A DNA stretch of 6,747 bases, from the NCBI RefSeq assembly GCF_050320075.1, contig NZ_CP190024.1. One strand, given 5' to 3'. The position numbers were made by a program, and so were the translations under genes. Position 1 is the stretch's first letter; each line of letters begins with the position of its first letter. This DNA comes from Escherichia coli (GTDB lineage: Bacteria > Pseudomonadota > Gammaproteobacteria > Enterobacterales > Enterobacteriaceae). Under the pieces are notes generated by a model, which saw only the letters and a list, made by a program, of their open reading frames with translations, did no database searches and was not told the origin of the DNA. Of this stretch, positions 1,587-6,590 are shown in pieces.

Positions 1587-3806
1587 ATGGCGATTTATCA
1601 TCTCAGCATGAAAATCATTTCGCGAAAAAACGGCTACAGTGCCGTTGCTTCTGCTGCCTACCGTTCCGGCTCTGTCATACCCGATGACCGTACCGGATTA
1701 ATCCACGATTACACCCGTAAACGCGGCGTTGATGATGCGGTCATTCTCACCCCTGCGAATGCACCGTCCTGGTGTGGTGACCGTTCCGTTCTCTGGAATG
1801 CGGTCGAGAAAGCCGAACAGCGCCGGAACTCCCAGCTGGCAAGGGAGATTGAACTCGCCATTCCCCGTGAGATTTCCCGCGAGGCCGCACGGGAGGCCGT
1901 TCTCGCTTTTGTCCGGGAAAACTTTGTCAGTCGGGGCATGATTGCCGATGTGGCGTTCCATCATATGGACCGGACCAACCCCCATGCACACATCATGCTG
2001 ACCACGAGAGCTGTCGGGGAAACGGGATTCGCAGGAAAGGTCAGGGACTGGAACGACCGGGCACTCGCCGAGACGTGGCGCGCATCATGGGCTGACCATG
2101 CGAACAGAGCGCTTGCGAACGCCGGCTACCAGGAAGAGATAGACCATCGTTCATACGAGCGTCAGGGACTGGAGAAAGCGCCGGGCCTTCACCTCGGAAA
2201 GGCTGCCTGTGCGATGGAAAAACGGGGCATGGAAACAGAACGCGGTGAGCAGAACCGCCTGATTAACAGCCTTAACCTGGAAATACAGGTTTCCCGCACA
2301 AGGCTGGCAGTCATCCAGGTACAGGAGAACGTGCGGAAACGGGAACTCAGCGATGCCGCACGTCGTGCAGCGGAAGCCCTTAATCTGACCATTCCCGCCG
2401 CGAATGCCTCAGCGGATACCCTGCGGGAATTCATTGCCACACTGCCGCAGGAATGCGGGAACGCATGGGAGATGACACCGGAGTTCGTGGCGATGAACGG
2501 GAAGGCAAACGACATCAAACGTGAGGGGAATGCGCTGGTGAAAGAGCGGGATATTCTCGAAAAAGAGATGACCGGACTCAGAAAATCCCGTCCGGTAGCG
2601 TCCATCCTGTCAGAGCTTCCCCTGATGACATGGGCTGAACCGGAATACCGCAAAAGACAACTCCGCTTCTGGAAACTCGAGAAACAGATTGAATCTCTTC
2701 TCCGCACCTACAGGGCCGTGAAAGAACGGGACATTCCCGCCCGTCGTCAGGCCTTTGAAACGCAGTGGAATACGTGGATTTCGCCGGGAATGGCAGAGCT
2801 GAAAGAAAAACTGTCAGCACGGGAAGCGGAGCGGCGCAGGGAGGAAGCCGAAGCGGAAGCGCGCCGGAAGGAACAGGAATATGACGCACGGCTGAAACAC
2901 CATGATAACCATCGCCTGAGCCGTGAAACGGCATTAGCCGGGGTTATTACGGAGCTGGGGCGTGCCAGAGAGCCGGGAACGGGCAGGATAACCCGCTACA
3001 TGATGCTGAGTAACAGAGCCGGAGAATTCACGGTATGGGGTGATGAGCTGGCGCATTACCCCCAGAGTGTTCATGACCCGGTGAATGTTTACCTGTCGCC
3101 AGGCGGGGCTGTGATGGTCTCGGATATACGTGAGAGAATGCCAGAATCTCATGAGACGATGGCGCGGCCTGAGCGTGTGAGAATGTATTCCGGTGCGACG
3201 GTCCGGCATGTACTGGAACAGATGCGCCAGGGGTGGCCCTCTTACGGTTTTCCGGCGCTGCCGCATCACTGGCCGGATAATTTTTATTTCAGCGACGACC
3301 GCAGGCCCGCAGCCTCTCCGCTGCCGTCAGCGCACCGGGTGGACGTCACCGCTTATGCGGCACCGGAGCAACTCATGCCCGTTGTCTTTTCGACAGAGCG
3401 AAACAGCAGGACGCTGAATCTGCTGTTGTGCGAAGGGCCGGAGGAAATGCTTGTCGGTTTTGTGCGCCTGGAGGACGAGCTGCGTCCCGTTCTTGCGCTT
3501 CCGTCGCCGGATTACAGTCATCTGATGGTAAGCATCATCACAGAGAACGGGATACACCTGGCAGGTTACGGTGAGGCCATAAACCGTGATGCTGATACTC
3601 CGTACCCACCGGAACCGAAGCTGATGCAGTTCAGGCTTAAGGGCTGTCAGGACACGCTTTTTGCTGCCATCAACAAACCGGAAGAGATGCCGGATTATCT
3701 CTTCCGTCAACTCGGATTTAATCAGACCTGGCATGAGTGGAAGCGGGAGGAACAGCGCAGGCAACAACAACGCCGTCCCGGGCACTTCCGGGGCATGAGT
3801 ATGTGA
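1587..3806 (+). CDS. mobA: MobA/MobL-family (MobQ) conjugative relaxase with a long C-terminal extension
   Basis: The ORF track starts at a GTG at 1500, but the in-frame ATG at 1587 gives the N-terminus MAIYHLSMKIISRKNGYSAVASAAYRSGS, typical of MobA relaxases (RSF1010 MobA starts MAIYHL) and placing the catalytic Tyr near the N-terminus. Histidine triad HHMDRTNPHAHIML. Stop TGA at 3804-3806. Residues from about 250 to 740 include a charged coiled-coil stretch and a C-terminal region I cannot assign to a domain by eye. Confidence 0.9.
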   Translation: MAIYHLSMKIISRKNGYSAVASAAYRSGSVIPDDRTGLIHDYTRKRGVDDAVILTPANAPSWCGDRSVLWNAVEKAEQRRNSQLAREIELAIPREISREAAREAVLAFVRENFVSRGMIADVAFHHMDRTNPHAHIMLTTRAVGETGFAGKVRDWNDRALAETWRASWADHANRALANAGYQEEIDHRSYERQGLEKAPGLHLGKAACAMEKRGMETERGEQNRLINSLNLEIQVSRTRLAVIQVQENVRKRELSDAARRAAEALNLTIPAANASADTLREFIATLPQECGNAWEMTPEFVAMNGKANDIKREGNALVKERDILEKEMTGLRKSRPVASILSELPLMTWAEPEYRKRQLRFWKLEKQIESLLRTYRAVKERDIPARRQAFETQWNTWISPGMAELKEKLSAREAERRREEAEAEARRKEQEYDARLKHHDNHRLSRETALAGVITELGRAREPGTGRITRYMMLSNRAGEFTVWGDELAHYPQSVHDPVNVYLSPGGAVMVSDIRERMPESHETMARPERVRMYSGATVRHVLEQMRQGWPSYGFPALPHHWPDNFYFSDDRRPAASPLPSAHRVDVTAYAAPEQLMPVVFSTERNSRTLNLLLCEGPEEMLVGFVRLEDELRPVLALPSPDYSHLMVSIITENGIHLAGYGEAINRDADTPYPPEPKLMQFRLKGCQDTLFAAINKPEEMPDYLFRQLGFNQTWHEWKREEQRRQQQRRPGHFRGMSM

Positions 3807-3844
3807 TGTCCGGGGCTGCACTCCGGACCCCGCCAACACATCAC

Positions 3845-3868
3845 GGGCCACAAAATTTTTTGTGGCCC
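3845..3868. terminator. Palindromic hairpin downstream of mobA (possible terminator/insulator before the colicin promoter)
   Basis: GGGCCACAAAATTTTTTGTGGCCC is a near-perfect palindrome with 11-bp arms, 39 bp after the mobA stop and upstream of the colicin promoter. No clean U-tract follows on the plus strand, so terminator function is uncertain. Confidence 0.4.
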
Positions 3869-3925
3869 GCTCTGCGTTTTCTAAGTGTTATCCCTCCTGA
3901 CTTCTAAAAAATTTTCCACCTGAAC

Positions 3926-3954
3926 TTGACAGAAAAAACGATGACGGGTACTTT
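3926..3954 (+). promoter_or_regulatory. Colicin operon sigma70 promoter (-35 TTGACA, -10 approximately TACTTT)
   Basis: Consensus -35 TTGACA at 3926-3931. After a 17-bp spacer a candidate -10 TACTTT at 3949-3954. An A/T-rich tract lies upstream (3905-3920) and the LexA operators immediately downstream, as in E-group colicin promoters. Confidence 0.65.
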
Positions 3955-3959
3955 TTGAT

Positions 3960-3990
3960 CTGTACATAAAACCAGTGGTTTTATGTACAG
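3960..3990 (+). promoter_or_regulatory. Tandem overlapping LexA (SOS) operators
   Basis: CTGTACATAAAACCAG (3960-3975) fits the LexA box consensus CTGT-N8-ACAG, and an overlapping second box ends in ATGTACAG (3983-3990). The whole element CTGTACATAAAACCAGTGGTTTTATGTACAG is the classic dual SOS box of colicin promoters. Confidence 0.85.
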
Positions 3991-4037
3991 TATTAATCAT
4001 GTAATTAATTGTTTTAACGCTTAAAAGAGGGACTTTT

Positions 4038-5786
4038 ATGAGCGGTGGAGATGGACGCGGCCATAACACGGGCGCGCATAGCACAAGTGGTAACATTAAT
4101 GGTGGCCCGACCGGGATTGGTGTAAGTGGTGGTGCTTCTGATGGTTCAGGATGGAGTTCGGAAAATAACCCGTGGGGTGGTGGTTCCGGTAGCGGCATTC
4201 ACTGGGGAGGTGGCTCCGGTCGTGGTAATGGCGGGGGTAATGGCAATTCCGGTGGTGGCTCGGGAACAGGCGGTAATTTGTCAGCAGTAGCTGCGCCAGT
4301 GGCATTTGGTTTTCCGGCGCTTTCCACTCCAGGAGCTGGCGGTCTGGCTGTCAGTATTTCTGCAAGCGAATTATCGGCAGCTATTGCTGGTATTATTGCT
4401 AAATTAAAAAAAGTAAATCTTAAATTCACTCCTTTTGGGGTTGTCTTATCTTCATTAATTCCGTCGGAAATAGCGAAAGATGACCCCAATATGATGTCAA
4501 AGATTGTGACGTCATTACCCGCAGATGATATTACTGAATCACCTGTCAGTTCATTACCTCTCGATAAGGCAACAGTAAACGTAAATGTTCGTGTTGTTGA
4601 TGATGTAAAAGACGAACGACAGAATATTTCGGTTGTTTCAGGTGTTCCGATGAGTGTTCCGGTGGTTGATGCAAAACCTACCGAACGTCCAGGTGTTTTT
4701 ACGGCATCAATTCCAGGTGCACCTGTTCTGAATATTTCAGTTAATAACAGTACGCCAGCAGTACAGACATTAAGCCCAGGTGTTACAAATAATACTGATA
4801 AGGATGTTCGCCCGGCAGGATTTACTCAGGGTGGTAATACCAGGGATGCAGTTATTCGATTCCCGAAGGACAGCGGTCATAATGCCGTATATGTTTCAGT
4901 GAGTGATGTTCTTAGTCCTGACCAGGTAAAACAACGTCAGGATGAAGAAAATCGCCGTCAGCAGGAATGGGATGCTACGCATCCGGTTGAAGCGGCTGAG
5001 CGAAATTATGAACGCGCGCGTGCAGAGCTGAATCAGGCAAATGAAGATGTTGCCAGAAATCAGGAGCGACAGGCTAAAGCTGTTCAGGTTTATAATTCGC
5101 GTAAAAGCGAACTTGATGCAGCGAATAAAACTCTTGCTGATGCAATAGCTGAAATAAAACAATTTAATCGATTTGCCCATGACCCAATGGCTGGCGGTCA
5201 CAGAATGTGGCAAATGGCCGGGCTTAAAGCTCAGCGGGCGCAGACGGATGTAAATAATAAGCAGGCTGCATTTGATGCTGCTGCAAAAGAGAAGTCAGAT
5301 GCTGATGCTGCATTAAGTGCCGCGCAGGAGCGCCGCAAACAGAAGGAAAATAAAGAAAAGGACGCTAAGGATAAATTAGATAAGGAGAGTAAACGGAATA
5401 AGCCAGGGAAGGCGACAGGTAAAGGTAAACCAGTTGGTGATAAATGGCTGGATGATGCAGGTAAAGATTCAGGAGCGCCAATTCCAGATCGCATTGCTGA
5501 TAAGTTGCGTGATAAAGAATTTAAAAACTTCGACGATTTTCGGAGAAAATTCTGGGAAGAAGTGTCGAAAGATCCTGAGTTAAGTAAGCAATTTAATCCA
5601 GGTAATAAAAAACGCTTGAGCCAAGGATTAGCTCCACGGGCTAGGAATAAAGATACTGTCGGTGGGCGTCGCTCATTTGAGCTTCATCACGACAAGCCAA
5701 TCAGTCAGGATGGTGGTGTTTATGATATGGACAACCTCCGTATCACTACGCCGAAACGCCATATTGATATTCACAGAGGTCAGTAA
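4038..5786 (+). CDS. col: E-group DNase colicin (BtuB/Tol-dependent, HNH nuclease C-terminus), most consistent with colicin E8-type
   Basis: 582-aa ORF with RBS GAGGG at 4026-4030. Glycine-rich N-terminal translocation domain containing the TolB box DGSGW (residues 35-39). Central coiled-coil region of the kind that forms the receptor-binding domain. C-terminal HNH/beta-beta-alpha-Me motif [34 protein letters not shown], diagnostic of the DNase colicins E2/E7/E8/E9. Subtype inferred from the adjacent immunity gene. Confidence 0.93.
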
Positions 5787-5788
5787 AA

Positions 5789-6046
5789 ATGGAACTGAAA
5801 AACAGCATTAGTGATTACACTGAAACTGAATTCAAAAAAATTATTGAAGACATCATCAATTGTGAAGGTGATGAAAAAAAACAGGATGATAACCTCGAGC
5901 ATTTTATAAGTGTTACTGAGCATCCTAGTGGTTCTGATCTGATTTATTACCCAGAAGGTAATAATGATGGTAGCCCTGAAGCTGTTATTAAAGAGATTAA
6001 AGAATGGCGAGCTGCTAACGGTAAGTCAGGATTTAAACAGGGCTGA
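5789..6046 (+). CDS. imm: DNase-colicin immunity protein (Im family), Im8-like
   Basis: 85-aa ORF starting 2 nt after the colicin stop, with RBS AGAGG inside the colicin 3' end. Conserved Im-family blocks [12 protein letters not shown]...[13 protein letters not shown]...[17 protein letters not shown]. The variable specificity region ([32 protein letters not shown]) matches my recollection of Im8 rather than Im2, Im7 or Im9. Confidence 0.93.
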
Positions 6047-6051
6047 AATAT

Positions 6052-6090
6052 GAATGCCAGTTGTTTAAGGATGAATGACTGGCATTCTTT
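6052..6090 (+). terminator. Hairpin between imm and lysis gene (partial read-through terminator)
   Basis: Perfect 10-bp inverted repeat GAATGCCAGT (6052-6061) / ACTGGCATTC (6078-6087) with a 16-nt loop, followed by TTT. It sits between imm and the lysis gene, where E-colicin operons have an attenuating terminator. Confidence 0.5.
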
Positions 6091-6107
6091 CACAACAAGG
6101 AGTCGTT

Positions 6108-6251
6108 ATGAAAAAAATAACAGGGATTATTTTATTGCTTCTTGCAGTCATTATTCTGGCTGCATGTCAGGCAAACTATATCCGGGATGTTCAGGGCGGG
6201 ACCGTATCTCCGTCATCAACAGCTGAAGTGACCGGATTAGCAACGCAGTAA
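6108..6251 (+). CDS. Colicin release / lysis lipoprotein (bacteriocin release protein)
   Basis: 47-aa ORF absent from the ORF track because of its length. [47 protein letters not shown] has a signal peptide and lipobox (LAAC, lipidated Cys at position 20), typical of colicin lysis proteins. Strong RBS AAGGAG at 6097-6102; last gene of the col-imm-lys operon. Confidence 0.9.
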
Positions 6252-6278
6252 CCCGAAATCCTCTTTGACAAAAACAAA

Positions 6279-6311
6279 GCGTGTCAGGCTGATTCTGATG
6301 CGCTTTTTTTT
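6279..6311 (+). terminator. Rho-independent terminator of the colicin operon
   Basis: Stem GCGTGTCAG (6279-6287) / CTGATGCGC (6295-6303) with a 7-nt loop and two G-U pairs, followed by T8 (6304-6311), just after the lysis gene stop. Confidence 0.75.
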
Positions 6312-6439: not shown

Positions 6440-6590
6440 CGCTTTCGTGCATAGTTATGCAGCGCCCTAAAAACGATTCTGACGCATTTTTCTGGTTCAG
6501 CCTGGTGTTTCCTTGTCTTTTTGCGTTTTTTGCGTCAGAACGCGTCTGAGAGCGTTTTAAGGGGTACGTACAACAGGAATTATGGTAAAT
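6440..6590. other. cer-like Xer (XerC/XerD) multimer-resolution site with upstream accessory sequences
   Basis: Core at 6563-6590: GGTACGTACAA-CAGGAA-TTATGGTAAAT. The XerD arm is identical, and the XerC arm has one mismatch, to ColE1 cer (GGTGCGTACAA-TTAAGGGA-TTATGGTAAAT) as I recall it. About 110 bp upstream is a palindrome with ARG-box geometry, TGCATAGTTATGCA (6449-6462), plus 9-bp inverted repeats TCTGACGCA (6478-6486) / TGCGTCAGA (6531-6539). Confidence 0.65.

Follow-up and report, generated by a model that had tools for sequence, protein, structure and literature searches.

The palindrome that lies between the relaxase gene and the SOS-controlled colicin promoter of a small Escherichia coli plasmid is a real, conserved and non-random element, and is best read as part of an ordinary terminator-type hairpin that ends mobA and is present here in a partly degraded copy. 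The element, GGGCCACAAAATTTTTTGTGGCCC, occupies positions 3845–3868 of the window, by which we mean the whole stretch of 6747 nucleotides that was analysed; an earlier sequence-only reading had reported it as a near-perfect palindrome, and both its sequence and its coordinates were recovered exactly. An RNA terminator or 3′-end hairpin of the mobA transcript is in our judgement a somewhat better than even prospect, and it is from comparative and folding data that we infer termination and its efficiency. The resemblance to an intrinsic terminator stems from the sense-strand position past the stop codon, the T-run found on one strand only, the stem maintained by compensatory substitutions, and the location at a module boundary.

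The window is a complete small colicin plasmid of the ColE9 type (ColE2 family, MOBQ4), and its backbone corresponds to the MOBQ4_2/ColE2-like type of Garcillan-Barcia et al. 2019 (PMC6856555). The 341 bp from 3700 to 4040 are 100% identical to NC_023325.1 (pACN001-D, also 6747 bp) and to other ColE9-type plasmids. According to the annotation of NC_023325.1, the open reading frames of the window and the scans made here, rep (1–927) is followed by mobC on the minus strand (1133–1408), the oriT intergenic region (1409–1586) and, on the plus strand, the mobA/mobQ relaxase gene (1587–3806, 739 aa, with its TGA stop codon at 3804–3806), which forms the transcription unit upstream of the hairpin. 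Its product is annotated as a MobQ family relaxase in NC_023325.1, and residues 18–213 match the Pfam domain MobA_MobL with E = 2e-70. Downstream of the hairpin come the colicin promoter, with TTGACA at 3928 and TACTTT at 3951 by reading of the sequence, the LexA double box (3960–3990), a presumed transcription start at about 3963, the colicin E9 gene (4038–5786, beginning with ATG at 4038), the immunity gene (5789–6046), the lysis gene (ending at 6251) and the plus-strand terminator of the colicin operon (6276–6306). A cer-like XerC/D core, GTACGTACAACAGGAATTATGGTAAAT, lies at 6564–6590 between the lysis gene and rep, and is kept in a cryptic Salmonella plasmid. The end of mobA at 3806, the −35 hexamer, the LexA boxes and the colicin start codon bear out the location that the sequence-only reading had given to the palindrome.

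Within the reported 24 bp, 22 positions are self-complementary, the exception being the central TT. One extra pair extends the palindrome to a perfect 26-bp inverted repeat, CGGGCCACAAAA-TT-TTTTGTGGCCCG (3844–3869), which has 12-bp arms and a 2-nt centre, forms the top of the hairpin, and is situated 38 nt past the mobA stop and 59 nt ahead of the colicin −35 hexamer. Among the perfect inverted repeats of the window, only the LexA double box is longer. When the whole window was shuffled with its dinucleotide composition preserved, inverted repeats with arms of at least 12 bp and a loop of at most 10 nt appeared in 2 of 300 shuffles, and arms of 11 bp were reached in 8 of 300. On the mobA sense strand the perfect repeat belongs to a longer hairpin (3835–3878), which begins 29 nt past the stop codon and whose 21-nt arms (3835–3855 and 3858–3878) are 81% complementary in the window. 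This hairpin leads straight into GTTTTCT (3876–3882), and the first two T of the T-run TTTTCT (3877–3882) can pair with the AA at 3835–3836. The minimum free energy (MFE) fold also contains a small GC-rich hairpin, CGGGGCUG...CGG.CCCCG, at 3811–3832 between the mobA stop and the main hairpin; it reads CCGGGG-N5-CCCCGG in relatives, and no MOBQ4_2 variant has lost its CGGGG/CCCCG arms.

Folding of a 56-nt RNA from the window gave an 11-bp perfect stem with a 4-nt loop, enclosed by an outer AAC.CA / UG.GUU helix from which the palindrome is split by a 3×3 internal loop; this outer helix is weak, comprising five pairs with a mismatch. The predicted energy is −21.8 kcal/mol, compared with −9.3 ± 2.4 kcal/mol for shuffled sequences (z = −5.1), and none of 200 shuffles was as good. 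The homologous hairpins of an enterotoxigenic E. coli (ETEC) colicin plasmid (L004) and of cryptic Salmonella/E. coli plasmids (L002) reach −36.2 kcal/mol (z = −10.3) and −31.6 kcal/mol (z = −6.5), respectively. A stable, G+C-containing RNA stem-loop is thus present on the sense strand in the window, L004 and L002, at the 3′ end of a transcription unit and in the same orientation as that unit. Another pairing was observed at the foot of this structure: GUGAUGU (3803–3809), which overlaps the mobA stop, is fully complementary to ACAUCAC (3838–3844) in the outer 5′ arm of the hairpin. The window MFE fold adopts this alternative, and the upstream copy reads GUGAUAU in relatives with an intact outer stem; a translation-dependent switch between the GUGAUGU pairing and the outer stem is conceivable.

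The region 3790–3925 was matched in 104 plasmid records, every one of them typed as MOBQ mobilizable. An exact-pattern scan of metagenome contigs for the last mobA codons returned 32 loci, mostly the same few variants; five of these loci (L029, L030, L033, L035 and L037) were rejected as unrelated chance matches. Nine distinct hairpin variants were obtained, and they fall into four lineages. The window type is carried by ColE2/E3/E9 plasmids, with one sub-lineage that has a G.U pair (GGTCC) and some members with AA at the centre, not TT. The ETEC colicin plasmid L004 represents a second lineage, with 20 pairs that are all Watson-Crick, and the cryptic 4234-bp Salmonella/E. coli plasmids (L002) a third, with 17 Watson-Crick pairs, one wobble and two mismatches in a different stem sequence. 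The fourth comprises the pUA1142-type plasmids, whose mob genes differ and whose colicin is of the pore-forming kind; their homologue of the hairpin has eroded to the stability of shuffled sequence (z = −0.95), so that the constraint on the hairpin is not universal.

Across the nine variants and four lineages, 81% of the stem cells are paired, against 30–50% when the partners are slid by 1–3 columns; five pairs have changed on both sides, against 0–2 in the slid controls, and the covariation score is 0.153, against 0.02–0.09. The GTTTTC that follows the stem is invariant in all nine. These counts indicate that what is conserved is base-pairing together with the T-run, not a recognition sequence. 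Conservation in related plasmids, which had been named as a check on the palindrome, was found in this form: relatives carry the hairpin with its T-run unchanged and, the eroded pUA1142 type excepted, with its stem pairing kept. The strand on which the hairpin acts is left equivocal by the pair statistics: according to a G.U-wobble test, four single changes (in L003, L039, L002 and L031) favour the plus strand, and two window-lineage changes (A.C pairs) and two inner pairs of the Salmonella type favour the minus strand. The outer 3′ arm reads GCTCTGCG in the window, GTGATGTG in L004 and GTGAGGCG in L002. Four clustered substitutions at 3869–3876 (GTGATGTG to GCTCTGCG) disrupt the outer stem in the ColE2/E3/E9 lineage; on the minus strand two of them still give G.U pairs. 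At the same place pUA1142-type plasmids show another substitution cluster, GTTCACCG. The palindrome centre (window 3855–3858) has TT in the window and AA in L041 and L004, whose palindromes are the exact reverse complement of that of the window.

Comparison with plasmids that have other genes downstream assigns the hairpin to the mobilisation backbone. The cryptic 4234-bp Salmonella MOBQ4 plasmids consist of rep, mobC and mobA with the hairpin after mobA, and have no colicin operon. They are collinear with the window through GCGTTTTCT, just past the T-run, and then diverge, their next 370 nt matching window 6381–6753 at 89.7%. The segment 3883–6380 of the window, with the colicin promoter, colicin, immunity and lysis genes and terminator, is hence a block of about 2.5 kb cleanly inserted or deleted relative to the Salmonella backbone, with junctions at 3882/3883, on the T-run side of the hairpin, and at about 6380/6381, on the side of cer and the region upstream of rep. 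Colicin and pesticin promoters on unrelated plasmids are homologous to the window from about 3925 onward only. The colicin-free carriers and the starting point of this promoter homology together show that the hairpin is a feature of the mob backbone and not of the colicin promoter, and the notion of a device specific to the colicin operon has to be abandoned: the same hairpin occurs where there is no colicin operon, and the homology ends behind its T-run. In pUA1142-type plasmids the hairpin element lies on the colicin side of a breakpoint, and the gene upstream of it has no homology to the MobA C-terminus. The position of the hairpin behind mobA is constant in plasmids with different downstream modules. 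In addition to placing the hairpin in the backbone, these comparisons define the left edge of the colicin cassette at 3882/3883 and its right edge at about 6380.

According to the mechanism that we propose, the mobA transcript would end in a long RNA hairpin whose upper part is the palindrome, and this hairpin together with the following UUUUCU would constitute an intrinsic (rho-independent) terminator, or at least a 3′-end-forming or stabilising hairpin for the mob unit. It would act in the mobA direction only, since the minus-strand tail lacks a U-run and no minus-strand gene is nearby. The bidirectional terminator of the sequence-only reading finds no counterpart here: the tail on the minus strand is GUGAUGUGUUGGCGGGG (5′ flank CCGCCAAC), and no minus-strand gene faces the hairpin. 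Read-through from mobA would be kept out of the downstream unit, which is the LexA-controlled colicin-immunity-lysis operon in colicin plasmids and the cer/rep-control region in their cryptic relatives. In the ColE2/E3/E9 lineage the four clustered substitutions have opened the outer stem, which would probably make the element a weaker terminator than the intact versions of relatives. The window copy is probably a weakened terminator of doubtful strength.

Terminator scores are in keeping with this gradation. A d'Aubenton-Carafa-type score came to 44 for L004 and 26 for L002, both well above zero, and to 9 for the window, slightly above zero; it was computed with modern energy parameters, and the values are indicative only. 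A consensus terminator scan passed over the window hairpin and its homologues in L004 and L002, because the maximal stem takes up two T residues and leaves a UUCU tail. The U-tract is indeed short, with four U followed by C and another U, and in the window it lies 8 nt from the perfect stem. As regards the terminator suggested by the sequence-only reading, direction and position stand (29 nt past the stop on the sense strand, with an invariant GTTTTC and a compensatory stem), but the 24 bp of the palindrome do not by themselves make a canonical terminator, given its 8-nt distance from the T-run and the silence of the consensus scan. The sole call of that scan between 3400 and 4300 was a minus-strand one at 3679–3706, where a perfect inverted repeat with 10-bp arms lies within the mobA coding sequence; this call is probably fortuitous. 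An Rfam search gave no family match near the hairpin even at E ≤ 1.

Like the intrinsic terminators of E. coli and its plasmids, the mobA element is a GC-containing stem-loop that occurs on the sense strand soon after a stop codon and is followed by a T-run; it is also maintained by compensatory substitutions and sits at the boundary of two transcription units. It differs from them in its unusually long stem (up to 20 bp in relatives) with an A/U-rich upper part, in its short U-tract (UUUUCU), which is partly pairable with the upstream AA, and, in the window, in the broken outer stem that leaves the perfect part 8 nt from the U-run. The terminator of the window's own colicin operon (6276–6306, followed by TTTTTTT) similarly closes a plus-strand unit of the plasmid with a hairpin and a T-run, but the consensus scan picked it up, with 13 pairs and a T7 tail, and not the mobA hairpin. 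MOBQ41 relatives, with about 47% protein identity in the MobA C-terminus, have no homologous hairpin. After mobQ, however, MOBQ41 (pIGWZ12-like) plasmids such as NZ_CP107177.1 (L038, 1866–1895) carry a canonical terminator, CCCCCAAAAATTGGGGGG followed by TCTTTTTT, that shares with the mobA hairpin its strand, its role relative to a homologous relaxase gene and G/C arms around an AAAAATT loop. It has no sequence homology to the mobA hairpin, its stem is a short one of 6–7 bp, its T6 tail is a proper one, and some 120 nt, with apparent iteron repeats among them, separate it from the mobQ stop. Its presence on the same strand at that distance suggests that the position is functionally analogous to that of the mobA hairpin.

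Other explanations of the element have to be weighed against an RNA terminator of mobA. It could be a decaying relic, that is, an ancestral mobA terminator retained by descent only and functionless here, whose 12-bp core is owed to chance or to gene conversion between the arms. We regard this as unlikely, even though the outer stem is broken by clustered changes at the same place in two lineages, the window score is marginal and the consensus scan is silent, since the inner palindrome has been kept perfectly (the only changes among the sampled window-lineage variants are a G.U wobble and a flip of the centre), the T-run has not varied, and a hairpin of −19 kcal/mol still pauses RNA polymerase and blocks 3′ exonucleases. 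The preservation of pairing instead of sequence also bears on the protein-binding site that had been offered as the alternative to a terminator. An operator for a dimeric DNA-binding protein, regulating the colicin promoter or mobA from −119 to −94, calls for a conserved recognition sequence, and five stem positions have changed on both sides with pairing kept, the Salmonella variant altering both arms compensatorily (C-G to A-T and A-T to G-C). The perfect dyad, its AT-rich centre and its place upstream of a regulated promoter are what an operator would look like, and AsnC is known to wrap the promoters of nuclease colicins from −93 to +100 (PMC4482635). However, the hairpin also occurs without any colicin promoter, the promoter homology of other plasmids does not extend to it, and its half-sites, by reading of the sequence, mismatch the CRP consensus TGTGA-N6-TCACA, being in the opposite arrangement. 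In addition, record annotation gives ColE2/E3/E9-type plasmids only Rep, MobA, MobC and the colicin operon, with no candidate regulator among them. We therefore consider an operator extremely improbable. The AsnC/LexA study of cea8 (PMC4482635), which covered −93 to +100, neither includes nor explains the palindrome, which lies at about −119 to −94 if transcription starts near 3963.

A function in DNA, as opposed to RNA, is a further alternative. A hairpin or cruciform might serve as an ssi/sso-like signal in single-stranded or supercoiled plasmid DNA, at complementary-strand synthesis after mobilisation or during the reported accumulation of single-stranded DNA, or it might be a recombination-prone junction at which cargo is exchanged; we hold such a role to be quite improbable. 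Both DNA strands of the window fold stably (z = −4.7 and −5.9), and the minus-strand hairpin is more stable than the plus-strand one, as RNA and as DNA, the window lineage having 16 Watson-Crick pairs, two G.U pairs and two mismatches on the minus strand and 16 Watson-Crick pairs and four mismatches on the plus strand. The TT of the window and the AA of L041 and L004 look like an inverted loop, such as template switching through a hairpin would leave behind. The element is also hit by four independent breakpoints or insertions: the Salmonella type breaks off at the 3′ end, the pUA1142 type at the 5′ end and L008 at the centre, and in L048 one side of a KPC transposon lies in the 3′ arm. Terminators, however, are natural module boundaries, so that breakpoints at the edges are expected regardless, and a role in DNA gives no function to a T-run that is invariant on one strand or to a fixed position behind a stop codon. 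For the ssi/sso-like variant, ColE2/ColE3 plasmids are reported to accumulate single-stranded DNA in a passage of PMC5916893 that cites Morales et al. 2015, and an ssi is placed somewhere on ColE2 in passages of PMC6856555 and PMC7690428 that cite Nomura et al. 1991. Some 2.9 kb, however, separate the hairpin from the ColE2 origin, which follows rep at about 930–1000, and a lagging-strand ssi would not be expected at the site of the hairpin; moreover, the element is eroded in pUA1142-type plasmids, and ssi sites have no sequence consensus with which it could be compared. That the palindrome forms hairpins or cruciforms in vivo, at which the inverted centre of some relatives hints, and is a preferred cargo junction of MOBQ4 backbones or a priming signal in single-stranded DNA, besides or instead of terminating mobA, seems to us very improbable. 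If the junction version were true, cargo such as the 2.5-kb colicin cassette would enter, leave or be exchanged in MOBQ4 backbones at this site. The cruciform-forming inverted repeat of ColE1 is the classic supercoil-dependent cruciform, and the mobA palindrome, which has no sequence relation to it, is likewise a perfect inverted repeat of a small Col plasmid and AT-rich at its centre; by this analogy, cruciform extrusion at the mobA palindrome is physically plausible.

With the hairpin read as a terminator of mobA, an element that is intact in relatives has become weakened in the widely used ColE2/E3/E9 plasmids. If the weakened hairpin permits mobA transcripts to read through past the LexA-controlled promoter, some basal, SOS-independent expression of colicin and lysis genes could be added; this would matter for quantitative models of colicin E2 release, though it would not be surprising, and the overall importance of the result is modest. 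Literature searches found no account of the palindrome, although older ColE2/ColE3 papers might contain one, and the MOBQ4 paper (PMC6856555) is silent on terminators, hairpins and palindromes.

Several other identities were considered for the palindrome and rejected. It does not match a cer-like Xer site, the only cer-like core in the window being that at 6564–6590. Nor is it a copy of oriT: its best local alignment to the plasmid's own oriT/nic region (1409–1586, ...GTGTGCGCCCT) is the 9-mer CACATCACG with a score of 18, which 299 of 1000 shuffles equalled or exceeded. A second nic site was suggested by TAAGTG..CCCT downstream of an inverted repeat, the arrangement seen at MOBQ nic sites, but this is at chance level; the sequence concerned, TAAGTGNNNNCCCT at 3882–3895, arose by chance in 40 of 200 shuffles and is absent from the Salmonella type.

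Some rearranged relatives deserve description. In L048 (NZ_OQ821047.1, a 16-kb KPC-3 plasmid), the sequence adjoining ISKpn6/blaKPC-3 abuts the 3′ arm of the hairpin at about 2990–3010 and the 5′ half is displaced; the separation of the arms beside these genes indicates that a resistance transposon landed in the hairpin element. In the metagenome contig L008 (7113–7200), which has the same mobA, homology ends inside the 5′ arm of the palindrome (CACGGGCCAtAAAA), and past the breakpoint there is a different hairpin, GGCCTCT-ATATAA-AGAGGCC, and a convergent 371-aa open reading frame. L003 (NZ_AP027659.1, 4732 bp) is a deletion derivative without window 4192–6219: its colicin gene breaks off after ~150 nt, with the colicin promoter and the hairpin still present ahead of it, and is joined to the equivalent of window 6220.

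Two observations concern the flanks of the spacer. Over 1800 conjugative plasmids encode a protein, annotated as LPD7-domain protein or DNA primase, whose C-terminal part is 44–50% identical to the last ~187 aa of MobA (window 3246–3806), which lie beyond the N-terminal MobA_MobL domain to which Pfam coverage is confined. On the promoter side, an UP-element-like A/T tract, AAAAAATTTT, at 3906–3915 precedes the colicin −35 hexamer by 13 nt; its AAAAAAT is also conserved in the pUA1142-type promoter.
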